DNA of 64,000 bases from Candidatus Moraniibacteriota bacterium (GCA_013336225.1 JAAXUC010000004.1:32421-96420), one strand, 5' to 3'; positions 3,152-54,867 are shown, counted from the first letter of the stretch. The notes: generated from the sequence alone by a model not told the origin. Program-made: numbers and translations.

Positions 3152-3811
3152 ATGTTGAATTATATTTTGCCGCCAATCATAATTGTTATCAGCATTTCAA
3201 TTTTGATAATGTTTCTTTTTCGCAAGGCTGCGCAAATTCCAGCGGGGGAGTTTGCCGTTGATGAGGACAATGGAAGAAATCATGAAAAAAATGCCACCAA
3301 GATGATGTCAGGGCTTGGGCAATTCGGCTTGAAAATCTTGGAAAGATTAATGCATCATTCGAAACTGCTTTCACTCAAATTTCACAATGTGAGCAATGTG
3401 TGGTTTCAGACAATTCGCGAAAAAAGAAAGCAAAGCGCGCAATTGCAAAAGGACAGGCAAGCTCAGCAGGAGGAGCAAGTAGCATTTTCTCGAAAGAGCA
3501 ATCTCAATGTTGATGTGCAAGCCGACAGCCTTGTTTTGCAAGAAAGGCAAACATTGAGGCCAATGGTGCGATCAACCATGACAATGCCGCAAAAGAATAA
3601 TGCCAAAGAAAAGAATCAGTTGGAGGACACTTTGATAAAAAGAATCGCCATCAATCCTAAGGATATTGAAGCTTATGAGCGATTAGGGGATTATTATCTG
3701 GAAAGTGAGAATTTTGGCGATTCATTGGAATGCTTTAAGCAAGTGCTGAAATTGAGCCCAGCTCATCACAAAGCCAGGCTGCGAATTAGAAGACTTGAAA
3801 AATTGAAATAG
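3152..3811 (+). CDS. hypothetical membrane-anchored protein with C-terminal TPR-like helix pair
   Basis: N-terminal TM helix (ILPPIIIVISISILIMFLF), Q/K-rich middle, C-terminal AYERLGDYYLESENFGDSLECFKQVLKLSP TPR-like region. Confidence 0.4.
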   Translation: MLNYILPPIIIVISISILIMFLFRKAAQIPAGEFAVDEDNGRNHEKNATKMMSGLGQFGLKILERLMHHSKLLSLKFHNVSNVWFQTIREKRKQSAQLQKDRQAQQEEQVAFSRKSNLNVDVQADSLVLQERQTLRPMVRSTMTMPQKNNAKEKNQLEDTLIKRIAINPKDIEAYERLGDYYLESENFGDSLECFKQVLKLSPAHHKARLRIRRLEKLK

Positions 3812-3834
3812 ATAGTATAGAATAAAAAGATATT

Positions 3835-3907
3835 GCCACCCTAGCTCAACGGTAGAGCTACTGTTTTGTAAACAGTAGGTTATCGGTTCAAATCCGGTGG
3901 GTGGCTC
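3835..3907 (+). tRNA. tRNA-Thr (anticodon UGU)
   Basis: Manual cloverleaf: acceptor GCCACCC/GGGTGGC, D-stem GCTC/GAGC, anticodon stem ACTGT/ACAGT with loop TTTGTAA, T-loop TTCAAAT. Confidence 0.85.
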
Positions 3908-18244: not shown

Positions 18245-18449
18245 GGATTATCATTTGAAAATGCGTTTTTTACTGTGTGACAATGTTTCATCTTCTTGTT
18301 GATCTGCAAAAATTGTTATTTCTTGTGCATGAAAATGGAATTGTTTTCCTTTCTCAAAAGTTTGTTTTAGTGTATAATTTGATTAGTAAATGTTTTTTTA
18401 TTTGAACTTAATTGATGATGATAAATTTGAATTAATAGCAGCTAATATT

Positions 18450-19001
18450 ATGAAAAAGACAAAAGAAGGGAGAAGTGTTTTTTCATGGATGAATCCTTGT
18501 TTGGAGGTTAGATCAATATCTAAGTATGGCAATAATGGAAAAGGAATTTTTACATTAAAAGAAATAAAAAAAGGTGAGGAGTTGGCTGTCTTTGGTGGTT
18601 ATATTGTAGCAGTTAAAGATCTGATTGATTTACCAGAGAAATACAGAGATCTCGGATTTCAGATATCTGATAAATTTTCAATAACTAGTAAGAATATAAA
18701 TGAAGACTCTGATAATTTTAATCATAGTTGTGATCCTAATGCTGGGATATGTGGACAAATATTTTTAGTTTCAATGAGGGATATTAAAAAAGGAGAGGAA
18801 GTTGTTTTTGATTATGCTATGGTTTTAAGTAAAAGTACTGGTGCTGAAAAATATGAAATTAAATGTTTATGTGGATCAGTAAAATGTAGAGGTAAGATAA
18901 CTGAGAATGATTGGAAGATGCCAGAATTACAAAAAAAATACAATGGATACTTCCAACATTTCTTGCAGGAAAAAATTAATAAAATAAATACAAAAAAATG
19001 A
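18450..19001 (+). CDS. SET-domain protein (putative protein lysine methyltransferase) with post-SET Cys cluster
   Basis: SET signature FNHSCDPNA, EEVVFDY, and post-SET CLCGSVKCRG. Start taken at internal ATG 18450; stop overlaps the HK start (ATGA). Confidence 0.8.
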   Translation: MKKTKEGRSVFSWMNPCLEVRSISKYGNNGKGIFTLKEIKKGEELAVFGGYIVAVKDLIDLPEKYRDLGFQISDKFSITSKNINEDSDNFNHSCDPNAGICGQIFLVSMRDIKKGEEVVFDYAMVLSKSTGAEKYEIKCLCGSVKCRGKITENDWKMPELQKKYNGYFQHFLQEKINKINTKK

Positions 19002-22279: not shown

Positions 22280-22510
22280 AATGCTAGTATTATTTTAATA
22301 AAAAGATGAATTAAAAGCGTTTGAGGGAATATCAATCCCGAGCTGCAGGAAGAAATGTTTCAGTATATATGATACTTGTGACAAAATAGAACCTGTCGGA
22401 TAAGTCCGTTATAGCCGTTTGAGTCTGGTTGATATGAGAAATAACCAGAAAATTAAGGTGGCACCACGTTTCCAAGACGTCCTTATATCAAGGGATGTTT
22501 TTATTTTATT
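22280..22510 (+). promoter_or_regulatory. T-box riboswitch leader upstream of ileS
   Basis: T-box consensus AAATTAAGGTGGCACCACG at 22450-22468, followed by a terminator-like hairpin and T-run (22470-22508). An AUC Ile codon sits in a candidate specifier loop (gtATCaagaga). Confidence 0.6.
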
Positions 22511-22543: not shown

Positions 22544-25483
22544 ATGCAATTCAAGAAAGTAGATGCAAGAAAAAAATATTCAGAAATGGAGAAAGAAATA
22601 ATTCAATTTTGGAAAGATGATGGAACTTTCCAAAAATCCATTGAGCAAAAAAAAAATAATAAATATTTTAGTTTTTATGATGGTCCACCATTTATTACTG
22701 GTGTTCCACATTATGGAACATTGTTATCCTCTATCGTGAAGGATGCTGTTCCTAGATATTGGACAATGAAGGGATATCGTGTTGAGCGTCGATGGGGATG
22801 GGACTGTCATGGTCTTCCAGCTGAAAATATGGTGGAGAAGAAATTGGGAATCAAAAATAAACGTGAAATTGAGGAAAAAGTTGGTATTGCTACCTTTGTC
22901 GAGGAATGCATTAAGGAAACATCTCAAATTGCCTCTGAATGGGAAACTGTTATTGATAGAGTTGGTCGCTGGGTGGAGTTTAAAAATGCATACAAGACGA
23001 TGGATAAGAATTATATGGAATCCGTATGGTGGGCATTTTCGCAGCTTCACAAAAAAGGATTGATTTATGAAGATGTGAGAGTATCGCTATATTGTCCTAG
23101 ATGTTCAACGCCTTTATCAAATTTTGAAATTGCGATGGATAATAGCTATGAGATGGATAGTGATCCTTCAGTATATGTAAAAATGAAGATAAATGGTCAA
23201 GAAAATTCATATTTCTTGGTTTGGACAACAACTCCATGGACACTACTTGCTAATGTGGCCTTGGCTGTTGGCGGCGATATTGACTATGTTAAAGTTAGAT
23301 ATAATGATAAAAATGGCAATCCTGAATTTTTTATACTAGCTAAGAATGTATATGAGAAAAGAAGAGACGATTTTTTCCCTGGTGTTAAGAATCTTGGGCC
23401 AGATGAAGTTCCTCCAGTTGCATCAGAAATAGTTGAAGAATTTAAGGGCAATGATTTATTGATTAAGGAGTATGAATCAATATTCCCACATGAAATCGAA
23501 AACGGATATAAAGTAATTGCGGCAGATTTTGTTACAACTGATGATGGTTCGGGGATTGTGCATATCGCTCCAGCATTTGGAGAGGATGATTTTCAAGTTA
23601 GAAAGTCCAATGATTTACCAATAATCATGAATGTTAATGAAGAAGGTCAATTTACTGATGGACTATGGAGTGGACAGAAAGTTTGGGATGCTAATAATGA
23701 GATAGTTAAATGGCTCAAGGAAAACAATATACTTTTTAAGCGCGAACAGATTACACATAGTTACCCCCATTGTCATAGGTGTCATACAAAGCTTATTTAC
23801 AAAGCACAACCAGCTTGGTATGTGAATGTTTCAAAAATTCGTAAAGATTTGATTGCGGAAAACGAAAAAATAAATTGGTTTCCTGAATTTTTAAAACATG
23901 GTCGTTTTCAAAATGGTATTGAAGGTGCTCCAGATTGGAACATTTCTCGTGATCGTTATTTTGGAACAGCAATTCCAGTTTGGAAATGTGATGAATGTGA
24001 TGAAATGAAAGTTTTTGGGTCCTATGAAGAATTGAAAAATGCCTCTGGTATTGAGCTTGACGACTATCATCGTCCAAAGGTTGACGATGTTACTTTTGCT
24101 TGTGAAAAATGTCACGGTAAAATGAAGAGAATACCGCAAGTTTTTGATTCTTGGATTGAATCAGGCTCAATGCCGTTTGCTCAATTTCATTATCCATTTG
24201 AAAATAAAGAGGTTTTTGAAAAGAGTTTTCCTACGGACTTTATTTCAGAATATATTGCCCAAACAAGAGCTTGGTTTTATGTGCTGCACGTTCTTTCTGT
24301 GGGAATTTTTGGAAAAATAAGTTTCAAAAATGTTGTAACAACAGGAACAATTGCTGGAAATGATGGAAAAAAGATGTCAAAATCACTGGGGAATTATACG
24401 CTGCCCGATGTCGTTTTAGAGCAATACAGCGCTGATGCACTTCGACTTTATCTTTTGTCTTCACCGCTACTCAATGCTCAAAATATTAGTTTTTCAGAGA
24501 AATCCATACAAGATATTCAAAGAAAGGTATTGTCAACGCTTTGGAACAGCTATGCTTTCTTTACTCTCTATGCTGATGTTGATAAGTGGACGCCAAAAAA
24601 TAATGCTGGTTCTCCAGCCGATTCTGATAATCTTTTGGATCTTTGGATCGTGTCTGAGCTAAACAAGCTTATTAGAGAGGTTGATACTAATATGGAAGCA
24701 TACGAATTAGTAAAAGCAATCAGACCCTTTGAGAATTTTGTTGATAACTTATCAAACTGGTATATTCGTCGAAGTCGTAAACGTTTTTGGCGAAGTGAGA
24801 ATGATGATGATAAAGGCAATGCGTATCAAACCTTGCACTATGTGTTAGTTACTCTTTCAAAAATAATGGCGCCATTTGCACCATTTATATCTGAAGAGAT
24901 TTATAAGAATTTAACCGGATTGGAATCTGTTCACTTGGAAGATTTTCCTATTGCTGATGCAAAAAGAATAGATGAGGAACTGAACAACAATATGAGTGAT
25001 TTGCGTGAAATTATAACAATAGGTTTGCAAGATCGCGCAAAAAACAAAATTAAGGTTAGACAACCGTTGAGTGGAGTTTTTCTTGGTCAGAAATATAGTA
25101 AAGTCTTCAATGAAACTATAAACAAGCCAGAGTGGAGTATTATTTTAACAGAAGAGTTAAATGTGAAAGGTGCAACACTTGGAACCGAAACGGAAACTGT
25201 AGCAATTGATTCAAATATTACTGCAGAGCTTAAGCTTGAGGGTCAGGCAAGGGAAATCGTTCGTTATATCCAAGAAATGCGTAAGGAGGCTGGTTATGAA
25301 GTTGATAACCATATTATTGTGGGTTATTCCGGGGTAGAGGAAGTCTTTAATGAATTTGGAGATCTTATATCTAGGGAAATATTAGCGGATAAAATACAAT
25401 CTAATAATTTGCCCGAATATGACTTACAAAAAGAGTTCACATTTGATGAGAAAGTGTTTTCAATTACAATAAAAAAACTGTAA
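22544..25483 (+). CDS. ileS: isoleucyl-tRNA synthetase
   Basis: Class I HIGH-region variant PHYGT, KMSKS (KKMSKSLGN), CP1 editing domain and Zn-binding C-terminus; 979 aa. Confidence 0.95.
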   Translation: MQFKKVDARKKYSEMEKEIIQFWKDDGTFQKSIEQKKNNKYFSFYDGPPFITGVPHYGTLLSSIVKDAVPRYWTMKGYRVERRWGWDCHGLPAENMVEKKLGIKNKREIEEKVGIATFVEECIKETSQIASEWETVIDRVGRWVEFKNAYKTMDKNYMESVWWAFSQLHKKGLIYEDVRVSLYCPRCSTPLSNFEIAMDNSYEMDSDPSVYVKMKINGQENSYFLVWTTTPWTLLANVALAVGGDIDYVKVRYNDKNGNPEFFILAKNVYEKRRDDFFPGVKNLGPDEVPPVASEIVEEFKGNDLLIKEYESIFPHEIENGYKVIAADFVTTDDGSGIVHIAPAFGEDDFQVRKSNDLPIIMNVNEEGQFTDGLWSGQKVWDANNEIVKWLKENNILFKREQITHSYPHCHRCHTKLIYKAQPAWYVNVSKIRKDLIAENEKINWFPEFLKHGRFQNGIEGAPDWNISRDRYFGTAIPVWKCDECDEMKVFGSYEELKNASGIELDDYHRPKVDDVTFACEKCHGKMKRIPQVFDSWIESGSMPFAQFHYPFENKEVFEKSFPTDFISEYIAQTRAWFYVLHVLSVGIFGKISFKNVVTTGTIAGNDGKKMSKSLGNYTLPDVVLEQYSADALRLYLLSSPLLNAQNISFSEKSIQDIQRKVLSTLWNSYAFFTLYADVDKWTPKNNAGSPADSDNLLDLWIVSELNKLIREVDTNMEAYELVKAIRPFENFVDNLSNWYIRRSRKRFWRSENDDDKGNAYQTLHYVLVTLSKIMAPFAPFISEEIYKNLTGLESVHLEDFPIADAKRIDEELNNNMSDLREIITIGLQDRAKNKIKVRQPLSGVFLGQKYSKVFNETINKPEWSIILTEELNVKGATLGTETETVAIDSNITAELKLEGQAREIVRYIQEMRKEAGYEVDNHIIVGYSGVEEVFNEFGDLISREILADKIQSNNLPEYDLQKEFTFDEKVFSITIKKL

Positions 25484-25526: not shown

Positions 25527-25558
25527 AAAAAGTAGCCACTAAGTGGCTACTTTTTTTT
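25527..25558 (+). terminator. rho-independent terminator (aaaaagtagccac-taa-gtggctacttttttttt)
   Basis: Perfect 11-bp stem plus T9 after ileS. Confidence 0.7.
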
Positions 25559-25608
25559 GCGCCTTTTGGGGCGTTGATGTATGTCATTATGGGATATATT
25601 ATCATTAC

Positions 25609-25672
25609 TTGACATTAATTAGCGATAGCAATAGAATAAGATCATATTAAAGGTTAACTTATAGGTTAACTA
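25609..25672 (+). promoter_or_regulatory. promoter (TTGACA -17- TAGAAT) followed by a tandem GGTTAACT palindromic pair (candidate operator) upstream of the HTH-XRE gene
   Basis: -35 at 25609-25614, -10 at 25632-25637; ggttaact at 25652-25659 and 25664-25671 (GTTAAC is self-complementary). Confidence 0.5.
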
Positions 25673-25678
25673 CTATGT

Positions 25679-26707
25679 ATGCTTATTGAATCAAAAATTA
25701 TTGGTATAAATATTAAAAAGCAAAGGCTTTTGAATAAGATGTCACAAGTTGATGTTGGAAATCTTTTAAGTACTACAAAATCTTATATATGTAGCTTGGA
25801 GCGTGGTAATAGGAACCCTTCTTTGAAAACTTTAAAAAAAATAGCACTTATCTTCAATGTACCCGTAGAAATTCTTTTGAGGGGTAATGATATAGCTGAT
25901 TCAAAATATCAAAAGATAAGGGATGATAAATTTCAGCAATTTGAGAAGAAGATAAAAAATTGGAATATTACTTCACAGAAAAAATGGTGCAATTTTTTCA
26001 TCGATGAAGAAAGTATGTTTTTCAATAAAAATAGAATTAATCAGATAAAGACTATAGTGAAAAGATATGCTGATAATAAAAACTTATCAGTTATAGATTC
26101 GTCATGTGGAACTGGAAGACTTACGGAATTACTTGCAAAAGATGGCTTTAAAAAAATATATGGAATTGATGCCAATCCATATGTTGTAGAGATAGCAAGA
26201 GAGCAAGCAATACAAAAAGCATTAATGATAAACTATGATATATCTATTCCGCCAAGTTTTGAAAAAAAAGTATTTGATGTGGTTTTTAACATAGGAACAT
26301 CGATAGGGTATTTGCAAAGTGAGGAGGATAATTTTGAGAATATCAGAAGAATAAGTTGTTTAGTCAGTAGGGGTGGAAAAATAATAATTGAGGCAGTTAA
26401 TCCTATTGGGATATTGCGTAATTTTAGTTCAAGCGAAACACTTAAATTGGATGGAAAGAAGCGATCATATCAACGTTTTTTTGATGTAAGGAGTTCAACA
26501 AGTATTGAAAATGTTATTGATACTTATGATAATAAAAAACAAATTGAATATTTTAGCAGTATTCGATTATTTTTTCCCCACGAATTAATATCTATTTTTT
26601 TGAATAGTGGGTTTATTTTAGTTGATCTGCTTGATAATAATTTAACCAGGAAAAATACCGTTAATTCACCTAGGCTATGGTATATTTTTCAGAAAAAAAA
26701 TGTTTAA
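25679..26707 (+). CDS. HTH-XRE (Cro/C1-type) DNA-binding domain fused to a class I SAM-dependent methyltransferase domain
   Basis: N-terminus QVDVGNLLSTTKSYICSLERGNRNPSLKTLKKIALIFNVPVEILL = XRE HTH; C-terminal motif I VIDSSCGTGRLT, post-I GIDANP, motif II FDVVFN. Confidence 0.7.
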   Translation: MLIESKIIGINIKKQRLLNKMSQVDVGNLLSTTKSYICSLERGNRNPSLKTLKKIALIFNVPVEILLRGNDIADSKYQKIRDDKFQQFEKKIKNWNITSQKKWCNFFIDEESMFFNKNRINQIKTIVKRYADNKNLSVIDSSCGTGRLTELLAKDGFKKIYGIDANPYVVEIAREQAIQKALMINYDISIPPSFEKKVFDVVFNIGTSIGYLQSEEDNFENIRRISCLVSRGGKIIIEAVNPIGILRNFSSSETLKLDGKKRSYQRFFDVRSSTSIENVIDTYDNKKQIEYFSSIRLFFPHELISIFLNSGFILVDLLDNNLTRKNTVNSPRLWYIFQKKNV

Positions 26708-27797
26708 TTTTATTGGTAAAATGCAATTTCATCAGAATAAAATAAATTCTCTCCTTGAGGATAGAATTGAAAATTCACTAACTACTGTCTTTATTGATCT
26801 GGTTAGCGGTGTTTGTAATCATAAGTGTGTGTTTTGTGATGGAAATTTTAATCCAATAAAAAAGCTAATTTTTTCCAAGAGTAAGTTGCTTGAAATAGCT
26901 AATGATCTTGGTGATATGAATGTTGATTCCGTGATTATGGTTGGCGAGGGTGGAGAATCATTATTGAATCCCAATTTTTGTTTTTTTTCAAAGAAATTGT
27001 TGGATAAAAAAATTCATCTTGGAATGTATACGAACGGTGGCATGTTGAATAAGAAAAATCTCGGTGTTATTTCAAGGTTTGATTTTATTAGAATTTCTTT
27101 GGACTCTGGATCATCGATAACTCATCAGCAAGTGCATGGGTATGAGGATAGAGATGATTTTAATAAGATATTTGAATCAATTGAATATTTAAGAAAAAGA
27201 AGCAAAATACAAATAGGATCATCATTCTTGCTATTACCACAGAACGTAGATGATTTATATGAGGCTGCAAAGAGATTAAAGGAGGCTGGTGCGAATTATA
27301 TAGAGGTTAGGCCAGCATATTTAAGGGATTACGGCTTTGATTTAAAGGCTTTTAAATCGATAAAGGATCGTTTCTTATACCAATTGGATAAAATGGACGT
27401 CCTAAATGATGATAGCTTTAAGGTGATTATTAATAATCAGTTAAAGGAGATAATTAAAAATAAAAAAACAATTCGTGGTGATGTTACAAGGTTGAAAAGA
27501 TCAAGAAATTGTTTAACTTGTAGGTTGAGATTAGTTGTGAGTCCAACGGGATGTTATATTTGTCCACCAAATAGAAGTAAAGAAGATTTTCGCATAGGTG
27601 ATATTTGGAATAATCCTTTACGTAGCATTTGGAATAATAGGGAACATTTGGATAAGATTAATAAAAAATGTGATTTAAAATGTCCTTACCATAAGCAAAA
27701 TAATTTTTTAATTAAATTAAAGAAAAATAATTTAATTTTTGATGATAAGTGCTTGCTGCCAGCTGGCAAATTAATTACTCAGAAAAATTTTCTATAA
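26700..27797 (+). CDS. radical SAM enzyme with C-terminal SPASM/twitch-like Cys-rich domain
   Basis: CX3CX2C (VSGVCNHKCVFCDG); C-terminal CLTCRLRL...GCYICPP...GDIWNNPLRSIWNN...CDLKCPYH resembles SPASM auxiliary-cluster motifs; overlaps the upstream gene by 8 nt. Confidence 0.8.
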   Translation: MFNFIGKMQFHQNKINSLLEDRIENSLTTVFIDLVSGVCNHKCVFCDGNFNPIKKLIFSKSKLLEIANDLGDMNVDSVIMVGEGGESLLNPNFCFFSKKLLDKKIHLGMYTNGGMLNKKNLGVISRFDFIRISLDSGSSITHQQVHGYEDRDDFNKIFESIEYLRKRSKIQIGSSFLLLPQNVDDLYEAAKRLKEAGANYIEVRPAYLRDYGFDLKAFKSIKDRFLYQLDKMDVLNDDSFKVIINNQLKEIIKNKKTIRGDVTRLKRSRNCLTCRLRLVVSPTGCYICPPNRSKEDFRIGDIWNNPLRSIWNNREHLDKINKKCDLKCPYHKQNNFLIKLKKNNLIFDDKCLLPAGKLITQKNFL

Positions 27798-27801
27798 AAA
27801 T

Positions 27802-28899
27802 ATGATAAAACCTATAAACTTTACAAAATATTATAAAGAAATTTTATCAGAATTGATGCTAGCATTTAGCGAGTTTATTTTAAGTGGGCAATATATCGGA
27901 GGTAAATTGGTGGAAAAATTTGAAGATAAAGTTAAAAAATATTTGGGTGCTAAACATGCAATAGGATGTAAGAGCGGAACACATGCTCTTCAGCTTGCGC
28001 TTTTAGCTGCTGGTGTTGAGAAAGGTGATGAAGTTATTACGGTTGCTAATACATATTACGCAACGGTATATGCAATTACTGCTGTAGGAGCAACGCCAAT
28101 TTTTTGTGATATTTTACCAGAAAATGGGCAAATTGATCATAATAAAATTGAAGCTAAAATTACTAAAAAAACAAAGGTTATTTTGCCAGTTCATTTGTAT
28201 GGGATACCTGTTAATTTGGGGGAAATTAGAAAAATTTGCAAAAAATATAAGTTAATATTAATTGAGGATTGTTCTCATGCATTTGGAACAAGGTTAAATG
28301 GTGAATATATAGGAAGTGATTCAGATTTTGGATGCTTTAGTATGTATCCAACAAAAAATCTCGGTGCTTTTGGTGATGCTGGATTTATAACAACAAAAAA
28401 TAAGAAATATGAAAGCAAGATTCGCGAATTGATTTATTTGACAGATGCTAAGCGGGTAAAATTTAATCCAAAAGCTATTCATGCTATGCTGGATCCTCTT
28501 CAGGCAGCCTTGCTTTTGGTAATGCTAGATAAGATGGATCAAGCACGCAAAGATAGAATTGAGAGAGCGGATGAATATAGGAAAAATCTAGAGGAATATA
28601 TCAGGATAAGTAAGGTTGGAAGTGATAGTGTTGTGAATCCTCACATGTTCCCAATTTTTATTAAAAATAGGAACAAGTTGATAAAATTTTTGGCAGATTC
28701 CTCTGTGCATGTGCAAGTTCATTATCCAACCAATCTGCATTGTCTGTCACAGTTTGGATCATACGCCAAAGGGTATCTCCCAGAAACGGAGAGGCACAAT
28801 AGAGAAGAGGTCAGTCTTTCTGTTCATCCATCTGTTTCAATATCTGAAGTTAAGAAAATATGTAAATTAATTAAGCAGTATGTCGAAATTAACAAATAG
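27802..28899 (+). CDS. DegT/DnrJ/EryC1/StrS-family PLP-dependent (sugar) aminotransferase
   Basis: Family N-terminus GGKLVEKFEDKVKKYLGAKHAIGCKSGTHALQLAL; PLP-Lys motif FSMYPTKNLGAFGDAGFI. Confidence 0.8.
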   Translation: MIKPINFTKYYKEILSELMLAFSEFILSGQYIGGKLVEKFEDKVKKYLGAKHAIGCKSGTHALQLALLAAGVEKGDEVITVANTYYATVYAITAVGATPIFCDILPENGQIDHNKIEAKITKKTKVILPVHLYGIPVNLGEIRKICKKYKLILIEDCSHAFGTRLNGEYIGSDSDFGCFSMYPTKNLGAFGDAGFITTKNKKYESKIRELIYLTDAKRVKFNPKAIHAMLDPLQAALLLVMLDKMDQARKDRIERADEYRKNLEEYIRISKVGSDSVVNPHMFPIFIKNRNKLIKFLADSSVHVQVHYPTNLHCLSQFGSYAKGYLPETERHNREEVSLSVHPSVSISEVKKICKLIKQYVEINK

Positions 28900-29884
28900 A
28901 AAGAAAATTGTTGTTTTGGTTCTTGGATTTAGGGCGCTTTCTTTTATTAAGAAGGGTTATTTAGCGTCAATTATTAAGGCTGCCGATAAAATAAAAAATG
29001 CAAAAGTTGATATTGTTTATCTTGATAATTATTCAAGAGATGGATCAGTACCATACATCATGAAAAATTATAAAAATATCGATCTATTATCTGCGACTGA
29101 AAATTATTTTTACTGTAAGGGTGTAAATGTCGGTTTGCAATTTTCATATCAAAAATATAGACCAGATTACTTTATGCTTGTAGATGCTGATAATCCATGT
29201 GAAGAGAGCGCTTATGGTAAGTTGATTGATTTTGCAAATAAAAATGCAAAAGTGGGAATTGTTCAGCCGCTAGTTAAGGGTCTAAGTGATTCAAATAGAG
29301 TATATTCATGTGGGCACGTATATGAAAATGGTATTTCATGTAGGCCATTAAGAGAAATCCCAAAAAACAAAAAAATATTATTAAATCTTCAAAGTTGTTC
29401 AATATCATCAACACTTGTCAAAACAAAGGTTTTTGAAAAATGTGGTTTGCTTGATCCTATTTTCAAGATTTATTATGAAAGTAGCGACTTATCATTCAGA
29501 GCAAGAAAAGCGGGCTTCTTGTGTGCTTGCCATGTTGAGGCTGTGTGTTTTAATGAGGGTGCAAAAGTTTCAAAAACTGATAATTTTCATGAGGGTTATT
29601 TTAGAAATAGAAACAATTTAATTTTCTGGAAAAAACATGATAATGAAAAATATGAAATTTTAAAAAAGATATATCAAGAAAGGCATAAGCAATTAAATGT
29701 AAAATTGGCTAATTTGAAATATGTCACAGACATGGAAGAGGAGAGTGAGCGAAGGGGGATTGAGGACGGCATAAAAATTACTAAAAAAATGGTTGCAGGT
29801 ATCAAGAATGAAGAGAGGATAGATAAATTTGATAAAACTGATGCTATTGTGATTCAGGAAGCATGCAAAAATAATGAAAAATAA
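28880..29884 (+). CDS. family 2 glycosyltransferase
   Basis: GT2 motifs DIVYLDNYSRDGS, DxD (LVDADN), and YESSDLSFRARKAGF (ED-DLS-R-R-AG). Confidence 0.65.
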   Translation: MSKLTNRKKIVVLVLGFRALSFIKKGYLASIIKAADKIKNAKVDIVYLDNYSRDGSVPYIMKNYKNIDLLSATENYFYCKGVNVGLQFSYQKYRPDYFMLVDADNPCEESAYGKLIDFANKNAKVGIVQPLVKGLSDSNRVYSCGHVYENGISCRPLREIPKNKKILLNLQSCSISSTLVKTKVFEKCGLLDPIFKIYYESSDLSFRARKAGFLCACHVEAVCFNEGAKVSKTDNFHEGYFRNRNNLIFWKKHDNEKYEILKKIYQERHKQLNVKLANLKYVTDMEEESERRGIEDGIKITKKMVAGIKNEERIDKFDKTDAIVIQEACKNNEK

Positions 29885-32150
29885 CATGTCAAAATCATTT
29901 CATCTTTTCTTATTGAAATTTTTCTATTCCATGTTATGCATTAAGGATTATTTCATGATGGGTTTTGAAATCAAAAAGCTTAAGAAGATAGCCAGCAAAT
30001 CAGTAGACACATTGCAATTTAATGATAAATTGAATGAAAATATCGTTGTTGGTGTGGACGAAAAAGAAGGATATTATATTGATTCAAAAAAGCCATCTTA
30101 TTACAAGAAGCACTTTAATGATTTTTTTCATAATGATTTGTATGGTAAATATAGATCAGATGAAAATATTATTTTAAGTACTGGTGCTCTTAATCAGGAT
30201 GAATTTTGTCTTCCGCGTTCGTTGAAATTTGCCATAAGCTATGCTCTTACGAGAAATTGGTATGGTTATTCTTGCAGCTTAGGTAGGGAATCAGCTCGCT
30301 TGGCTATAGCTGATCTGGAAAACCATAAAATTAATAGCAATATCTACAATGAAAATAATGTAGCATTGATACAGGGTGTTACGGCCGGATTATTTCACTT
30401 ATTATCATTTTTGAAAGAGAGAGAGGAAGATGGTAACTTCGGCATTTTGACGCATTATCCAACTTACGTGCCTTTTGCAGCAACTTGCGAAAAAATCGCA
30501 CCCACAAAAATAATAAATTTTTTTGGTGATAAAAAATTTAGCATCGAAGCGTTTAAGCGAAATATAGATAAAACAACAAAGGTGATTTTATTGCTTGGAG
30601 ATTTTAATCCATTAGGAAAACTTATGGATGTTTCTTTTGTTAATGAATTGATTGATATTTGTGATGAGAAGTCGATATATCTTATTATTGATGAGGCTGG
30701 TTCAAAATATCCGGAAAATAATTGGAATAATTTGAAAAATAGTGATTTCTTAATCAGGATGGATAGCTTATCTAAAAAAGTTTCAGTTCCTGGTATGAAA
30801 TTGGGATATTTTATTGCAAATGAGGAGATAATCTCTGAATTTTATGAGCGAGCATCAACAACCTATGGTGGCCCATCATCTTTTTTTTACATCCTACAAG
30901 AACTTGATGCAAGGTTCGATCTTTTTTTCCGCAAGGGTTTGCTTAAGATTGGATCAGGAGAGTTGGCATTATTTGATAAAAATTACAATCTAGGATTATT
31001 TTTTTTGAATATTCTCTATGGTCAATATATTAAAAATAAACATTTTTTTGAGTTAAAAATAAAACAGCATCGCAGTATCGTTATTGATAAGCTTATCAGT
31101 CATCATCCTCAATTGGTGAAAAAAATAATCATGCCAGAAACTGGTATTAATATTTTTTTGCAATTAGATGTCGATTACGGCAGTTATGAATTTTTCAGAA
31201 AATTGATAGTTGAAAAAAGGACAGCAGTTTTTCCGGGACTTTGTTCTGCTACAGATAAAGAATGCTGGATAAGAATAACATGTGGTGTTGATAAAAAAAC
31301 TTTGCAAACTGGTTTGGATAATTTGGTTGATTTTCTTAAGACTGAGTGGATCAAGAAACAAATACAAAAAGAGCCATTTTTTGAAAAATTACTTCTTGAT
31401 TTTGGTCAGTATGGGAGTTATGGTTACTTGTCATTTTTTGAACACATTTATGATGTTCAAAAAAATGGAATGAAAATATTGGATATTTTTGAGCTGAAAA
31501 CTAGAAGAAAGTTGGATCGTGATTTACTTAGGGAGGTGATATTTTGTCATGATGCTGGGAAAGTTGTGAGTGTGATAGTGTTTCGAATTATGAGAATTTT
31601 GCAACTTCAAAAAAAATATGGAAAAATCCCATTTTCAGTTTTTTCTAAATTGAGAGACGAGGATTTACTGTTTTTGCGAAAGGAAATAGTGGATTGTTTT
31701 GTTTTTACAAAAGAATATTTTTACGAAATGTTTCCATTTTTGCATGATTATTCTGAATTAATGAATTTAGATAGTGATAAATATCTTAAAGATACCGTCT
31801 TTACTGAGAAGATGCTTCAGCTTGCTCTGGATAAATATCCAAATTATGAGAAAAAAATAGAAGAAATGAAATTTATAATATTGAACAATTCCGCAAAAAT
31901 TAATATCAATAATTTAATGATTGGATATAATCCGTATATTTTCATTTTGGATTTTGCAGATAAAATTGCTGATTATAATCTTCCAGAAGAACCAACTCTG
32001 GCAAAAATAGATGAACTTTTGAGAAAAAAGAAAAAATATGTAATTAAACGATATTGTCATAATAATCGATCCATGGAAGCTATTGTCCATTGCGAGTTTA
32101 GTCATCTGTATGAGCTAATTAGGGAATCAAGAGTTTTTCATAAATGTTAA
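29874..32150 (+). CDS. fusion protein: class I/II PLP aminotransferase domain + C-terminal putative HD-type phosphohydrolase domain
   Basis: Aminotransferase PLP-Lys motif SLSKKVSVPGMKLGYFIAN (cf. SFSKxxxxxGxRxGY); C-terminal H...HDAGK (FEHIYD...VIFCHDAGKV) resembles HD-domain motifs I and II. Confidence 0.55.
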   Translation: MKNNMSKSFHLFLLKFFYSMLCIKDYFMMGFEIKKLKKIASKSVDTLQFNDKLNENIVVGVDEKEGYYIDSKKPSYYKKHFNDFFHNDLYGKYRSDENIILSTGALNQDEFCLPRSLKFAISYALTRNWYGYSCSLGRESARLAIADLENHKINSNIYNENNVALIQGVTAGLFHLLSFLKEREEDGNFGILTHYPTYVPFAATCEKIAPTKIINFFGDKKFSIEAFKRNIDKTTKVILLLGDFNPLGKLMDVSFVNELIDICDEKSIYLIIDEAGSKYPENNWNNLKNSDFLIRMDSLSKKVSVPGMKLGYFIANEEIISEFYERASTTYGGPSSFFYILQELDARFDLFFRKGLLKIGSGELALFDKNYNLGLFFLNILYGQYIKNKHFFELKIKQHRSIVIDKLISHHPQLVKKIIMPETGINIFLQLDVDYGSYEFFRKLIVEKRTAVFPGLCSATDKECWIRITCGVDKKTLQTGLDNLVDFLKTEWIKKQIQKEPFFEKLLLDFGQYGSYGYLSFFEHIYDVQKNGMKILDIFELKTRRKLDRDLLREVIFCHDAGKVVSVIVFRIMRILQLQKKYGKIPFSVFSKLRDEDLLFLRKEIVDCFVFTKEYFYEMFPFLHDYSELMNLDSDKYLKDTVFTEKMLQLALDKYPNYEKKIEEMKFIILNNSAKININNLMIGYNPYIFILDFADKIADYNLPEEPTLAKIDELLRKKKKYVIKRYCHNNRSMEAIVHCEFSHLYELIRESRVFHKC

Positions 32151-32166
32151 TATAATTTTAAAAAGT

Positions 32167-32748
32167 ATGATCAAGATGGAATATTTTATTAAAAAAATTG
32201 TTGATATATTAAGCAAAAAAGGCTTGGAAGATAAGGAAATTTCCAATATCATGCTTACTTCCAATGAAACACTTATTAATGAGATAGCTGATGTCATTTT
32301 TGATTTTATGAATCGTGGAAAAAAAATAATATACAATGTGCAAGTTGATTATTCTAAAAATGTGGAGGAGATGGTTGAGATTACAATGCATGAATGGGCT
32401 AATGAAGACATCACCTCGGAACATTTCCTTAATATCAGGGGTAAATCCGCAGAAGTGAGTGTTGAGCTTATACATTTCAATCGAAGCATCCTAAGCGATG
32501 ATGCACTTCTTGAGATGAGTGCTATGGGTTATCGTGCGGCTAATATGCAGGAATTCTTGGCATTTGGTGCGAAATATCCTGATCTGCAACGCAAATTTCC
32601 AATTGTGGGATTGGGGTCAGTTTGGCACAGTGAAGACAGTCATCTTGTTGCATATATGAGCTGGGGAGCTTCTGGCCGTTACCTCCATTTGTGGCATCTT
32701 GATCTTGTTTGGGGTGACGGTTGTCGTTTTGCTGCCGTTAAAGAATAA
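32167..32748 (+). CDS. hypothetical protein (193 aa), last gene of the AT-rich operon
   Basis: No motif recognised; distinctive HLWHLDLVWGDGC C-terminus. Confidence 0.35.
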   Translation: MIKMEYFIKKIVDILSKKGLEDKEISNIMLTSNETLINEIADVIFDFMNRGKKIIYNVQVDYSKNVEEMVEITMHEWANEDITSEHFLNIRGKSAEVSVELIHFNRSILSDDALLEMSAMGYRAANMQEFLAFGAKYPDLQRKFPIVGLGSVWHSEDSHLVAYMSWGASGRYLHLWHLDLVWGDGCRFAAVKE

Positions 32749-32838
32749 TTATTTTTAATGGCATATGAGGTTGTGGATATTCTGAAAAGGTAATATATAT
32801 TGAAAGCAGAATAAATCAAAAAGAAAGGGGGTGATGAT

Positions 32839-32985
32839 ATGCTAGATGGAAATCCTTGGGTTGGGGCAGCTATGAGTGGACACTACAATTACAAAGAAGC
32901 AGCGCCTATGTTTATATTTGCTGTAGTTATTGTTTGTGTGTTGCTTGTTATTGGTGTGGTAGTTTTTTTAAAAGAAAGAAAATAA
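32839..32985 (+). CDS. small membrane peptide (48 aa: MLDGNPWVGAAMSGHYNYKEAAPMFIFAVVIVCVLLVIGVVVFLKERK)
   Basis: Below the ORF-track cutoff. SD aaagaaagggggtga identical to the 13060 ORF leader. Single TM helix followed by KERK; hairpins follow (32990-33015 and 33079-33122). Confidence 0.5.
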   Translation: MLDGNPWVGAAMSGHYNYKEAAPMFIFAVVIVCVLLVIGVVVFLKERK

Positions 32986-33078
32986 CTATTATTATCATCT
33001 TTGATGATAATAATAAGGCAGTAGGCCCTTGTTGACAGTGATGGGTGAAAATTATTATTGCGCTGCATTTTGAAAAAT

Positions 33079-33122
33079 TGAAAACCGATATTTGGCTATT
33101 ATGCAAAATATCGGTTTTATTT
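33079..33122 (+). terminator. rho-independent terminator (gaaaaccgatattt-ggctattatgca-aaatatcggttttatttttt)
   Basis: 14-bp stem plus T-run; closes the AT-rich operon. Confidence 0.6.
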
Positions 33123-33138
33123 TTTCATATTGCATGGG

Positions 33139-33167: not shown

Positions 33168-33196
33168 TGGGCGAATAAGCAGTGTCGAAAAAAATA

Positions 33197-34069
33197 ATGA
33201 AAATTACATTAAGTGCGTATGCTGGTTTTTGCGAAGGTGTGGAGCGGGCATATGATATTGTGGAAAAAATCGCCAAAGACCCGCTGGTAAAGCGGCCTAT
33301 TTTTGTGTTGGGCTCCTTGGTGCATAACGACGATGTGGTGCAGCGAATTGAGGACATGGGTGTCAGGAAAGTGCACGTGGAAGGTCCACTGGAAGAGTTC
33401 TTTGAGAAAATAAAAGGGGAGGTGGGAACTTTGGTCATCACGGCTCATGGCATTGGACCAAAAATATATGAGTTGGCCAAAAAATATGAAGTTGATTTGG
33501 TAGACACAACTTGTCCGCGCGTTATCAAGGTGCAAAGATTGGCCAAAGCTTTTTTTGATCGCAATACACAAATTGTGATTATTGGCGAAAGAAATCATAA
33601 GGAAGTTAAGGGAATTTATGAATGGGCCAATAAGCAAGCAATTTTCATTGAAACTGATGAAGATCTTTGTGGTTTCGATGTTGATCCAAAAAAGAAATTG
33701 GCAGTGATTTCTCAGACCACACAAGATCAGGAATTTGTCGATCGCGCAGCTGCGCAAATTTCCAAAAAATATCCGCACGCCCAAGTGGTGGATTCAATTT
33801 GCCTCACCACTCATCATCGTCAAACCGAAATCAAGCAGCTTGCCAAAGAAAATGATGTGGTAATTGCGATTGGTTCGCCTGAAAGTGCCAATTCCACGCG
33901 TCTTTGGGAAATTGCTCAAAGGGTTAATCCTTCCTCATATTTCATTCAGCGGGCGGCTGATCTTGAAAATGCTTGGTTTCTTGATTGCAAAAGTGTGGCA
34001 GTTACTGCGGGTGCAAGTACGCCAAAATGGATTATAGATGAGGTTATAAACAGATTGGAGACCTTATAG
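33197..34069 (+). CDS. ispH: 4-hydroxy-3-methylbut-2-enyl diphosphate reductase (IspH/LytB)
   Basis: MKITLSAYAGFCEGVERA (cf. MKIxLAxPRGFCAGVDRA) and conserved Cys/His positions. ATG 33197 is preferred over the GTG at 33182. Confidence 0.8.
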   Translation: MKITLSAYAGFCEGVERAYDIVEKIAKDPLVKRPIFVLGSLVHNDDVVQRIEDMGVRKVHVEGPLEEFFEKIKGEVGTLVITAHGIGPKIYELAKKYEVDLVDTTCPRVIKVQRLAKAFFDRNTQIVIIGERNHKEVKGIYEWANKQAIFIETDEDLCGFDVDPKKKLAVISQTTQDQEFVDRAAAQISKKYPHAQVVDSICLTTHHRQTEIKQLAKENDVVIAIGSPESANSTRLWEIAQRVNPSSYFIQRAADLENAWFLDCKSVAVTAGASTPKWIIDEVINRLETL

Positions 34070-54477: not shown

Positions 54478-54867
54478 ATGAGTAAAATATTAGATAAAAT
54501 TGGTTTCTTCATTTTTATGTTGACACTTTTTTCTGGAGTTCCATTGTCTGCATTTTTAATTGCTAATGCTTTTAATGAGCATGACAAAATTGCTTTGTTC
54601 TTTGGTATTATTCTTTTGATAATCACTGTATCTATTTTTGGATTTGTTCGTGGTATTAATCAATATTTTACTGGTGAGGTCGTGCAATTTGAAAGAATCA
54701 AGGAAGGGGTTTATAAACTTTTTGGTAGAATTGAAAATATAACAATTCTGAAAAAAGTTGCAGATGATGGGACAGAGAAATATTTCTCTATTATTGATTT
54801 TCCTGATAATAGTATGGAACAAGGAGTGGTATTTAGGCGAACCAAAAAAGATCTGGTTGTTATTTGA
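54478..54867 (+). CDS. hypothetical small membrane protein
   Basis: Two N-terminal TM helices; followed by terminator 54891-54929. Confidence 0.35.
   Translation: MSKILDKIGFFIFMLTLFSGVPLSAFLIANAFNEHDKIALFFGIILLIITVSIFGFVRGINQYFTGEVVQFERIKEGVYKLFGRIENITILKKVADDGTEKYFSIIDFPDNSMEQGVVFRRTKKDLVVI

Follow-up and report, generated by a model that had tools for sequence, protein, structure and literature searches.

An AT-rich gene cassette beside ileS in Candidatus Moraniibacteriota encodes a putative SbzP/PseP-type β-NAD-alkylating enzyme fused to an HD-superfamily domain

We analysed a 64-kb stretch of DNA (the window) from Candidatus Moraniibacteriota (Moranbacteria, CPR). ORF calling gave seven ORFs, which all run in one direction on the + strand, at positions 25679-26707, 26700-27797, 27802-28899, 28880-29884, 29874-32150, 32167-32748 and 32839-32985. 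This block is flanked by ileS (22544-25483) and ispH (33182-34069), and the ORF coordinates match exactly the overlaps of 8, 20 and 11 nt between neighbouring genes given in an initial annotation of this DNA. The GC content of the block is 0.310, and that of the remaining window is 0.387. The GC3 values are 0.22-0.26 in the block and 0.37-0.40 in proS, aspS and ispH, and the codons ATA, TTA and AGA are over-represented in the block. Thus, the GC, GC3 and codon analyses bear out the earlier impression of a block that is more AT-rich than its flanks and heavy in these codons. Horizontal acquisition had also been suggested, and this AT-rich, separately promoted, tight operon is probably foreign. 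Flanking direct repeats, which had been proposed as a marker of an island boundary, were looked for at the block and none was found. In Pfam and NCBIfam searches of the seven ORFs, the last two (193 and 48 aa) had no match.

The ileS gene is followed by a terminator hairpin at 25527-25555 (+), which is a perfect 14-nt inverted repeat with a subsequent T-run. Directly downstream of this hairpin lies a sigma-70-type promoter, TTGACA-17-TAGAAT (25609-25637, +; 11/12 match); promoter-like sites overall show no excess (50 in the sequence vs 44 in shuffled sequence). In the related locus L006, TTGACA-17-TATAAT is present at the equivalent relative position. Downstream of the -10 box and ahead of the start codon, we found an operator-like repeat, AGGTTAACTTATAGGTTAAC (25648-25673, +), which contains palindromic GTTAAC units. 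The GTTAAC motif is kept in L006 (TAAGTTAACCTATAAGTTAACC) and L003 (TTATAAGTTAACC), and is conserved in three lineages. The transcription unit ends at a terminator hairpin (33074-33125, +) made of a 23-nt inverted repeat, 83% complementary, and the T-run TTTTATTTTTT. Accordingly, the block's own promoter, candidate operator and terminator, as described in the initial annotation, were all found. The first gene (25679-26707, +) encodes an XRE-type HTH (approximately aa 8-72; Pfam HTH_3, 1.6e-10) and a class I SAM methyltransferase domain (approximately aa 115-320; Methyltransf_31/25/11, about 1e-10; PDB match to the methyltransferase 9ri2, 1e-13), which agrees with the unusual fusion recognised at the outset. 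This HTH-methyltransferase is present in L003 and L006. The window and L003 proteins share only 36% identity, yet the GTTAAC motif is kept. The protein is probably both an autoregulator, acting via the conserved GTTAAC operator, and a tailoring methylase.

The second gene (26700-27797, +) encodes a radical SAM enzyme (Pfam Radical_SAM, E 1.8e-16) with the CX3CX2C motif and a Cys-rich C-terminal domain of twitch/SPASM-like type. Of the C-terminal Cys residues, four are invariant, and a further two show partial conservation. Pfam SPASM is not matched by the window protein and only faintly by a relative (P0099), and SPASM-type peptide maturases match below threshold only. The SPASM-like Cys motifs of the initial annotation stand as a Cys-rich tail, but not as a canonical 7-Cys SPASM motif. 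In a PDB sequence search, no solved radical SAM enzyme was matched. The nearest structures to the predicted model are of SPASM or twitch type and include BlsE and DesII, and SkfB and anSME score nearly as high. The radical SAM core also weakly matches prokaryotic viperins. Across the loci examined, the radical SAM gene is invariably paired with the third gene (27802-28899, +), which encodes a DegT/DnrJ/EryC1-family PLP sugar aminotransferase. The Pfam DegT_DnrJ_EryC1 match (E 6.5e-90; 302 bits vs a cut-off of 19.8) and PDB matches to 7b0d (6e-73) and then to the sugar aminotransferases DesV, QdtB, WbpE and NtdA support the original call, and no NCBIfam equivalog cut-off is reached. We take SMYPTKNLG to be the motif with the PLP-binding lysine. 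The fourth gene (28880-29884, +) encodes a family 2 glycosyltransferase (GT2), as annotated (Pfam Glycos_transf_2, 3e-8). It is the best-conserved protein of the cassette (52-76% identity over 7 loci), with the invariant motifs DNYS.DGS, SCSISSTL, YYESSD.SFR and LIFWKKH; inspection of its sequence by eye revealed no evident C-terminal hydrophobic or membrane-anchor stretch. Together, the radical SAM, DegT and GT2 proteins look like a sugar-tailoring module. Relatives of the module lie near dTDP-sugar, GT4, GT2, PMT_2, cytidylyltransferase and TylF-like methyltransferase genes.

The fifth gene (29874-32150, +) encodes a 758-aa fusion protein. Its PLP domain (aa 77-482; 30102-31319, +) matches Pfam Aminotran_1_2 (E 1.3e-24), and about 270 aa beyond it have no Pfam match. 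NCBIfam and Pfam gave only generic aminotransferase matches to this domain, which fell short of their cut-offs. The best PDB match by far is PseP (8K3H; E 6.4e-57 vs 2.4e-13 for the runner-up chain), with 32.8% identity over 400 aa. SbzP and PsePQ are PLP-dependent, β-NAD-alkylating [3+2] annulation enzymes of altemicidin, SB-203207 and SB-203208 biosynthesis (PDB 8K3H). In PseP, F413 and Y418 lie on an N-terminal extension helix and stack on the nicotinamide riboside, F457, R466 and Y699 bind NAD and SAM, and D462 makes a hydrogen bond to the ribose 3′-OH but is absent from the residues reported as essential (PMC13351049, PMC13518217). PseP residues F413, Y418, F457, R466, K629 and Y699 correspond to F85, Y90, W129, R138, K301 and Y371 of the window protein. 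Five of the six functional residues are identical, the sixth is a conservative F-to-W change, and all these positions are invariant within the family. F85 and Y90, both invariant, lie within FNDFFHNDLYG, an instance of the family-specific N-terminal helix motif FNxFFxxDLYG. K301, which is aligned to the catalytic K629, lies within SLSKK and is invariant in 8 homologues. D462 is not kept: it is replaced by C134 in the window protein and by C, H or S among close homologues.

By these sequence comparisons, the PLP domain is closer to SbzP/PseP than to other PLP families, and the 758-aa protein is assigned to the SbzP/PseP family of PLP-dependent β-NAD-alkylating enzymes. It would therefore not be a second aminotransferase. 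The initial annotation had described an aminotransferase-HD fusion and counted two PLP aminotransferases; the PLP fold, the HD domain and the unusual fusion stand, but the PLP domain is SbzP/PseP-like. The predicted reaction of the 758-aa protein is NAD + SAM → azaindane dinucleotide + MTA. The C-terminal part (aa 486-758; 31329-32150, +) is an HD-superfamily phosphohydrolase domain by fold and motif. Pfam PF01966 scores it at 14.4 bits, below the gathering score of 22, but the HD fold is supported, and the H...HD...D residues (H524, H559-D560 and D693/D696/D700) are all invariant; both features uphold the putative HD phosphohydrolase proposed earlier. The all-helical HD fold and the motif are shared with nucleotide phosphohydrolases, namely the Ap4A hydrolase YqeK and OxsA of oxetanocin biosynthesis, and with unnamed hydrolases of the HD superfamily. 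The HD domain probably trims the NAD-derived dinucleotide. The fusion is rare: only 8 relatives were found among 5.8 billion proteins, and a set of 1.84 billion cluster representatives yielded 14 matches to the C-terminal domain.

Comparison of related loci shows that the seven co-directional ORFs, described initially as a seven-gene operon, contain a cassette that other uncultivated bacteria conserve as five genes (25679-32150). The cassette is kept in L003, L006 and L007. In L004/5 and the visible part of L008, it lacks the HTH-methyltransferase and radical SAM genes, and NTP-transferase and/or SDR epimerase/dehydratase genes adjoin the modules in L004 and L008. In Paenibacillus L002, the gene order is PF01663 Phosphodiest, SbzP-HD and HAD phosphatase. 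Among about 10 lineages with the sugar module, five possess an SbzP-like enzyme, and in four of these five the enzyme is fused to an HD domain. In L013, L018, L021/22, L024, L019, L020 and L023, the sugar module is present and an SbzP-like gene is not.

The two remaining genes, judged by these comparisons, are local passengers, found in no related locus. The 193-aa protein (32167-32748, +), to which no function is assigned, lies outside the conserved cassette and had no match when compared with all related loci. Its gene follows the fusion gene after a 16-nt gap and is probably co-transcribed with the cassette here. The GC3 of this gene (0.34) resembles that of host genes, and the protein belongs to a family of 66 members, in which all source-named members are from Patescibacteria groups. 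The hydrophobic 48-aa peptide (32839-32985, +), whose ATG is preceded by a strong RBS-like GGGGGTG, is likewise missing from every related locus, even from L006, whose identity is 67-81%.

Because ileS precedes the block, we considered this gene together with the cassette. A T-box leader with truncated stem I lies at 22311-22487 (+). Its Rfam RF00230 score of 57.6 bits (E 5e-12) is below the gathering score of 93, and a homologous match is present upstream of ileS in L006. The specifier is likely to be AUC within GGGAAUAUCAAUCCC. The gene itself (22544-25483, +) encodes a type 2 (eukaryote-like) isoleucyl-tRNA synthetase: the best PDB matches are IleRS2 8c8u (1e-220) and 1ILE (8e-206), and type 1 1FFY gives 3e-87. 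KMSKS is present, and alignment places an unusual HYGT signature motif at aa 56-59 (nt 22709-22720). The GC3 of ileS (0.265) is cassette-like, and an AT-shifted GC3 is common to ileS and the cassette in three lineages.

The initial annotation treated ileS as a mere flank; instead, ileS accompanies the cassette more consistently than any other gene. Of about 10 lineages with the GT2-centred sugar module, six (window/L006, L003, L004, L013/L018, L021/22 and L024) have ileS on the same strand at a distance of no more than 4.3 kb. The arrangement varies: in L003 the cassette is upstream of ileS, in L004 ileS and the first cassette gene share 4 nt at the ileS stop and a tRNA-Ile lies just upstream, and in L013/L018 the gap between ileS and the module is 26 nt. 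The outer flanks are dissimilar in the five ileS-linked lineages with annotated flanks. An SbzP-homologue cluster adjoins ileS in the window, L006, L003 and L004. In L013, L018, L021/22 and L024, however, ileS lies beside a sugar module without a visible SbzP-like gene. Therefore, the linkage is at least as much that of the sugar module as that of the NAD enzyme. No ileS was found near the SbzP-HD or SbzP genes of Paenibacillus L002, L008 and L010-L012.

SbzP joins β-NAD with a SAM-derived fragment and thereby starts altemicidin/SB-203207 biosynthesis. The sbz cluster of Streptomyces sp. NCIMB 40513 contains an IleRS paralogue, SbzA, which is the isoleucyl donor in SB-203207 biosynthesis; SB-203207 inhibits IleRS. 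Published NAD-BGCs often carry aaRS genes (PMC9516700), and genes for glycosyltransferases, radical SAM enzymes and additional PLP enzymes also occur in them. The membership of the 758-aa protein in the SbzP/PseP family would place the window cluster among the NAD-BGCs, although the initial annotation recognised no named pathway. Features common to the window cluster, sbz and the NAD-BGCs are a core enzyme of the SbzP type, a SAM methyltransferase, and an IleRS gene located within the cluster or beside it. The window PLP domain shares with SbzP/PseP the PLP fold type I, the helix motif, the catalytic Lys and the NAD/SAM contacts (F, Y, an aromatic residue, R and Y). In contrast, it is only 33% identical, D462 is absent, and the HD phosphohydrolase is fused C-terminally, whereas SbzP stands alone and PsePQ has an N-terminal α-ketoglutarate oxygenase. 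The host also differs: it is a CPR bacterium, and the phyla listed in the literature consulted are actino-, proteo-, cyano- and chloroflexi-bacteria (PMC9516700).

The tailoring enzymes differ from those of sbz. By domain, none of the SbzQ oxygenase, SbzI GNAT, SbzM cupin, SbzJ dehydrogenase, SbzN/H/O de-ADP-ribosylation and SbzF reductase enzymes was found in the seven ORFs; DegT, GT2 and radical SAM tailoring replaces them. Therefore, the end product cannot be altemicidin-like: it would lack a sulfonamide, and for the removal of the ribose there is no known route. The ileS genes differ too. Judged by its T-box leader, ileS here is probably a housekeeping gene and, unlike the sbz paralogue, it is probably the sole genomic copy in a reduced CPR genome. 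The nucleoside and sugar tailoring of blasticidin S (BlsE) and desosamine (DesI/DesII) offers a parallel to the radical SAM model, but the window enzyme has four invariant C-terminal Cys and lacks a sequence-level match among solved radical SAM enzymes. In blasticidin S tailoring, the PLP enzyme BlsH accompanies the radical SAM enzyme BlsE and a glycosyltransferase.

Taken together, the balance of evidence leans slightly towards 25679-32150 being a horizontally mobile five-gene cassette for an NAD-derived small molecule, a variant of the SbzP-type NAD-BGCs that is functionally tied to IleRS. In this pathway, the SbzP/PseP-like domain would form a 6-azatetrahydroindane amino-acid dinucleotide, as expected from PseP homology and the conservation of the NAD, SAM and PLP residues. 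The fused HD domain would then hydrolyse the ADP-ribosyl pyrophosphate and/or the 5′-phosphate to give a mononucleotide or nucleoside; we propose this step because the domain is fused to the PLP enzyme, has the HD fold and metal-binding motif, and has a Paenibacillus homologue that is flanked by a PF01663 phosphodiesterase on one side and by a HAD phosphatase on the other. Because of the structural neighbours and genomic company of their families, the radical SAM and DegT enzymes may turn a sugar hydroxyl into an amine via a keto intermediate, and GT2 may form a glycosidic link. The methyltransferase domain would methylate the product, and the XRE HTH would repress the operon at the GTTAAC operator. 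Finally, given the recurrent gene linkage and the literature precedent, the product may act on IleRS as a (resistant) target, or IleRS may be an isoleucyl donor like SbzA. We infer both the IleRS connection and the product of the cassette.

Among the alternatives, a cell-surface glycan or glycoconjugate cassette has a small but appreciable probability. Here radical SAM, DegT and GT2 would produce an amino sugar and deliver it to a wall or membrane polymer, PLP-HD would add an unusual substituent, and the ileS linkage would reflect hitch-hiking behind a well-expressed essential gene. The sugar modules without an SbzP-like gene and the sugar-related neighbours of the relatives, including those of L004 and L008, are in keeping with this idea. 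However, the cassette has no flippase, polymerase or lipid-carrier transferase, and its GT2 has no evident anchor. Moreover, the presence of an XRE regulator and a dedicated operator, the extreme rarity of the family (unexpected for envelope genes), the conserved PseP NAD-binding residues, and an ileS linkage that recurs in six lineages on either side of ileS with differing outer flanks argue against it.

A classical desosamine-type deoxy-aminosugar pathway decorating an antibiotic aglycone, proposed in the initial annotation, is very improbable. Its sugar logic is reasonable for the radical SAM and DegT enzymes (BlsE/DesII neighbours, dTDP-sugar company), but there is a single DegT enzyme, the only other PLP enzyme is SbzP-like rather than DesV-like, and the window cassette contains no nucleotidyltransferase, 4,6-dehydratase or aglycone genes. 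Macrolide sugar transferases are expected to be of GT1 type, and the enzyme here is GT2. It is likewise very improbable that the block is an XRE-controlled anti-phage defence or toxin island in which PLP-HD depletes NAD and SAM on infection. The predicted consumption of NAD and SAM, the AT-rich, island-like block with its HTH, and the weak viperin matches would fit, but PADLOC matched only the generic HTH and radical SAM core and not PLP-HD, DegT or GT2, no phage or defence neighbours were seen, and this reading does not account for a biosynthetic set that comprises DegT, GT2 and a methyltransferase. The RiPP-like alternative of the initial annotation, in which a SPASM radical SAM maturase acts on the 48-aa peptide encoded some 5 kb further down the transcription unit, can hardly be right despite the sub-threshold maturase matches, because no related locus encodes the peptide or the 193-aa protein; the radical SAM gene is, moreover, always paired with DegT, and just four auxiliary Cys are invariant.

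Returning to the NAD-derived small molecule, we tentatively suggest that the cassette may represent a previously unrecognised ileS-linked cluster family in uncultivated bacteria, among them ultra-small CPR groups like Moranbacteria and Falkowbacteria. With its radical SAM/DegT/GT2 core, this family might produce amino-sugar nucleosides that mimic isoleucyl-adenylate or are acylated by IleRS, and the type 2 IleRS (HYGT, T-box) might be the resistant target and/or the donor. If this is true, a CPR symbiont would make an aaRS inhibitor from NAD, either its own or that of its host.

The seven co-directional ORFs between ileS (22544-25483) and ispH (33182-34069) lie where the initial annotation placed them, and the stated ORF overlaps (8, 20 and 11 nt) are exact. 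The transcription unit has its own sigma-70 promoter, as had been claimed (25609-25637, forward strand, 11/12 match), which is located 3′ of the ileS terminator hairpin (25527-25555, forward strand). Between this promoter's -10 box and the start codon, on the same strand, is an operator-like repeat containing GTTAAC; a terminator hairpin with a T-run (33074-33125, forward strand) ends the unit. The window belongs to a MAG of Candidatus Moranbacteria (CPR), and its radical SAM and 193-aa proteins match NCBI entries from a 112.5-kb contig at 100% identity. The gene order is identical in an independent Logan assembly. Searches of Pfam and NCBIfam upheld most of the domain calls. ORF 1 joins an XRE-type HTH to a class I methyltransferase, the DegT/DnrJ/EryC1 aminotransferase matched its Pfam family with an E value of 6.5e-90, and the GT2 call was confirmed. 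The radical SAM call also stood, and at the family level this enzyme matched only SPASM-type maturases, all below threshold. In ORF 5, a class I/II PLP domain was found, but the approximately 270 residues that follow it, which had been called an HD domain, gave no assignment. The 193-aa and 48-aa ORFs had zero matches in these two databases. The block is as AT-rich as it had appeared by eye (GC 0.310 versus 0.387 in the remaining window), ATA, TTA and AGA codons are enriched, and the GC3 values are 0.22-0.26 as compared with 0.37-0.40 in proS, aspS and ispH. Direct repeats that would mark an island boundary were not found on the flanks of the block. Elsewhere in the window, the most AT-rich ORF is a SET-domain gene (18390-19001; GC 0.279, GC3 0.191). 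This gene, which may also be of foreign origin, shares 4 nt with the start of a histidine kinase gene. A small ORF of 129 aa (54478-54867; GC3 0.208) is also AT-rich, unlike its neighbors.

The product of ORF 5 (29874-32150, 758 aa) had been taken for a second aminotransferase. When its PLP part was compared with PDB sequences, however, the single outstanding match was PseP (8K3H; E 6.4e-57, residues 77-482, 32.8% identity over 400 residues), whereas the second-best chain reached only 2.4e-13. Two papers (PMC13351049, PMC13518217) describe PsePQ as a stable fusion protein from Pseudomonas that is homologous to SbzP, and PseP as its SbzP-like portion. They also describe the 6-azatetrahydroindane dinucleotide, the product of SbzP and PseP, as the starting intermediate of altemicidin, SB-203207 and SB-203208, and state that the NAD- and SAM-binding residues of PseP were established by cryo-EM and mutagenesis. 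PseP F413, Y418, F457, R466, K629 (the PLP lysine) and Y699 correspond to F85, Y90, W129, R138, K301 and Y371 in the window protein. These six positions are invariant across eight close homologues; of the PseP residues compared, only D462 is not conserved. Because of the PDB match and the mapped residues, the PLP domain very probably belongs to the SbzP/PseP family. That it also performs the NAD/SAM chemistry is a prediction that we consider probable.

The C-terminal domain of the fusion protein gave only noise against PDB sequences. Its score against Pfam HD was below the threshold, which made a structure prediction necessary. When 1.84 billion cluster representatives were searched with a profile, only 14 proteins with the domain came up. 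Among the best 10 of these 14, which were scanned, the HD domain follows a class I/II PLP domain in seven and is stand-alone in two. Most PLP domains of those HD proteins keep the F, Y, aromatic, K and Y residues of PseP. The complete fusion protein has only eight relatives in 5.8 billion proteins. Its alignment retrieved one locus from 185,579 species genomes, a Falkowbacteria contig that was already known, and the first metagenome scan gave no match. In the sbz pathway of Streptomyces, ADP-ribose is removed by the SbzN/H/O trio; in the window cassette, the HD fusion would take that place. We infer, as the simplest reading, that pyrophosphate and/or phosphate is removed from the NAD-derived dinucleotide by the HD domain. 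The only homologue of the fusion protein from a cultured organism is that of Paenibacillus sp. T2-29 (CP178917, 4651222-4673537). It lies within an NRPS/PKS cluster, with a PF01663 phosphodiesterase on one side and a HAD phosphatase on the other, and this arrangement suggests that the NAD-derived amino acid enters peptide or polyketide assembly in that organism. The strain is also a practical one for experiments. Distant SbzP-like/HD fusions of 860-904 aa were seen in L010 (GCA_016722965.1, 10001-12715) and in two marine metagenome loci (L011 and L012). Their neighbors are an MFS transporter, a haem-oxygenase-like (PF14518) protein, NTP_transf_5 and peptidases, and the marine loci additionally carry a GNAT and an NadB-like flavoprotein. 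L010 adjoins lspA, rluD, pyrR and pyrB-type genes, the neighborhood of ileS in Bacillus, but its contig ends there.

The order HTH-methyltransferase, radical SAM, DegT, GT2 and SbzP-HD is kept in L003 and in L006; the L006 proteins are 67-81% identical to their window counterparts. The same set is cut by the contig end in L007. L004/5 has a second DegT gene followed by DegT, GT2 and SbzP-HD, and L008 has DegT, GT2 and an SbzP that lacks the HD domain. As cassette members, the 193-aa and 48-aa ORFs were considered and rejected, having no counterpart in any related locus, L006 included. The 193-aa gene (32167-32748) has host-like GC3, and in its family of 66 proteins all source-named members are from Patescibacteria (Moranbacteria, Azambacteria, Kaiserbacteria and Pacebacteria). 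Thus, the cassette consists of five genes (25679-32150), and the two small ORFs are local passengers, probably on its transcript. L006 and L003 also have the GTTAAC repeat in the corresponding position 5′ of their HTH-methyltransferase genes. Since it is kept although the window and L003 proteins share only 36% identity, this sequence pattern supports autoregulation by the XRE domain. Sequence-level relatives of the radical SAM enzyme and GT2 were not found in the PDB. One radical SAM homologue, in a Clostridia MAG, lies amid RmlB-like, dTDP-sugar isomerase and DegT genes, and another adjoins a GFO/IDH-GT2 fusion and a PMT_2 transferase. The nearest PDB relatives of DegT are sugar aminotransferases, namely a Gln:scyllo-inositol transaminase, followed by DesV, QdtB, WbpE and NtdA. 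GT2 is the best-conserved cassette protein (52-76% identity). In our reading, radical SAM and DegT would turn a hydroxyl group of a sugar into an amine via a keto intermediate, and GT2 would form a glycosidic bond.

In every long-enough contig with the fusion and the sugar module (radical SAM/DegT/GT2), ileS is close and on the same strand. It lies 5′ of the cassette in the window and L006 and 3′ of it in L003. In L004, the end of ileS shares 4 nt with the first cassette gene, while tRNA-Ile(GAU) (3806-3880) is directly 5′ of ileS; tRNA-Ile, ileS, DegT, DegT, GT2 and SbzP-HD form a single co-directional array. A second metagenome scan with the GT2 alignment and the contexts of radical SAM homologues gave three further arrangements. 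In L013/L018, the order is argS-GT4-radical SAM-DegT-GT2-ileS, with a 26-nt gap 5′ of ileS. L024 (796-11944) is a tight array that begins with ileS and goes on with a glutamine-synthetase-like ligase, three radical SAM genes, an unassigned 263-aa ORF, DegT and two GT2 genes. In L021/22 (L021, 3070-19497), ileS lies between IS66 and DDE transposases and is followed by sulfotransferase, GT2, radical SAM, DegT and B12-radical SAM genes. The linkage thus occurs in six of about ten lineages, and the outer flanks differ in all five of those six with annotated flanks. By our own rough estimate, chance would give it in well under 1% per lineage. An SbzP-like gene was not seen in L013/18, L021/22 or L024. 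Conversely, ileS was not seen at the high-GC loci L019, L020 and L023, nor near L008, the Paenibacillus locus or the distant fusions L010-L012; a partial ORF 5′ of the L008 cassette was considered and is not IleRS. Because there are ileS-linked loci without an SbzP-like gene and fusion loci without ileS, the linkage belongs to the amino-sugar module at least as much as to the NAD enzyme.

The ileS gene shares the AT-shifted GC3 of the cassette in three lineages, unlike synthetase genes of the same contig (window, 0.265 versus 0.372 for proS and 0.394 for aspS; L004, 0.286 versus 0.399 for leuS; L013, 0.247 versus 0.325 for argS). L003, L004 and L007 group at 56-72% identity in GT2 and DegT, and the IleRS proteins are 44-50% identical without this grouping. 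It is possible that ileS was co-transferred with the cassette: GC3 fits, but the IleRS identities do not follow GT2 and DegT. The window IleRS is type 2. Its signature motif (aa 56-59; 22709-22720) is HYGT in place of HXGH, and KMSKS is intact. HYGT differs from both the canonical motif and the G/AXHH variant, which gives inhibitor resistance in IleRS2 (PMC10485003). Only the window and L006 have it; L003, L004 and L013 carry HYGH, so HYGT was rejected as a feature common to IleRS proteins encoded next to such clusters. The window ileS is preceded by a T-box leader whose stem I is severely truncated (22311-22487, forward strand; 57.6 bits, E 5e-12, below the Rfam gathering score). The likely specifier is AUC within GGGAAUAUCAAUCCC, and a terminator-like hairpin lies 3′ of the T-box. 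A T-box is also present 5′ of L006 ileS (717-911) and was not found 5′ of ileS in L003, L004 and L013. In the known system, SB-203207 inhibits IleRS, and the sbz cluster was discovered via the IleRS paralogue SbzA, which moves Ile from Ile-tRNA to altemicidin (PMC6331615, PMC13518217). Several clusters of the SbzP type (NAD-BGCs) contain aaRS genes, which are presumed to be resistance genes (PMC9516700). Whether the product of the present cassette is functionally linked to IleRS is, in our judgement, evenly balanced.

We propose, as slightly more likely than not, that the cassette makes a regulated NAD-derived, amino-sugar-bearing, methylated product that acts with IleRS. The XRE-methyltransferase would repress its own promoter at the GTTAAC operator. 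Upon expression, the PLP domain would combine NAD and SAM into the azaindane dinucleotide, which the fused HD domain would trim. Radical SAM, DegT and GT2 might then install or attach an amino sugar, which could be the ribose of the NAD-derived nucleoside or come from a separate NDP-sugar, and the methyltransferase domain might methylate the product; these specific tailoring steps are tentative and less likely than not. The product would inhibit IleRS or receive isoleucyl from it. The serious alternative, to which we assign a distinctly smaller share, is a surface-glycan cassette with fortuitous ileS adjacency. It accommodates the sugar module, but the cassette contains a regulator and is without export or polymerization genes, the family is rare and the NAD-binding residues are conserved. 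Desosamine-type sugar synthesis, with which the initial annotation had drawn a loose parallel, is very improbable for an operon whose other PLP enzyme resembles PseP. Slightly less probable still is a defence island that depletes NAD; the PADLOC matches are generic only. A RiPP system, once suggested by the radical SAM enzyme and the 48-aa peptide, can practically be dismissed, since that peptide is absent from every related locus.

Only one family of NAD-derived natural products has been isolated (altemicidin, SB-203207 and SB-203208). NAD-BGCs of the SbzP type have already been published, including ones that contain aaRS genes, and so has the association of such clusters with genes for radical SAM enzymes, PLP enzymes and glycosyltransferases (PMC9516700). 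In the literature that could be searched, we did not find an HD fusion of an SbzP-type enzyme, the DegT/GT2/radical SAM/HTH-methyltransferase set, an NAD-BGC in CPR bacteria or the wider family of ileS-linked amino-sugar cassettes, although the supplementary surveys of the primary papers (Nature 2021, Nat Catal 2024) might already list such loci. If our proposal is true, the cassette represents a second, structurally different NAD-derived type, in which an HD fusion replaces SbzN/H/O and amino-sugar tailoring is added. In practical terms, the analysis provides a short, testable PLP-HD enzyme, a regulator with its conserved operator, and a search rule anchored on ileS that may lead to more such clusters and possibly to new aaRS inhibitors. 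CPR bacteria have minimal metabolism and, to our knowledge, few biosynthetic clusters are known from them. If such a cell invests NAD and SAM in a specialized metabolite, perhaps one directed against IleRS, this would bear on how episymbionts deal with their hosts and competitors.
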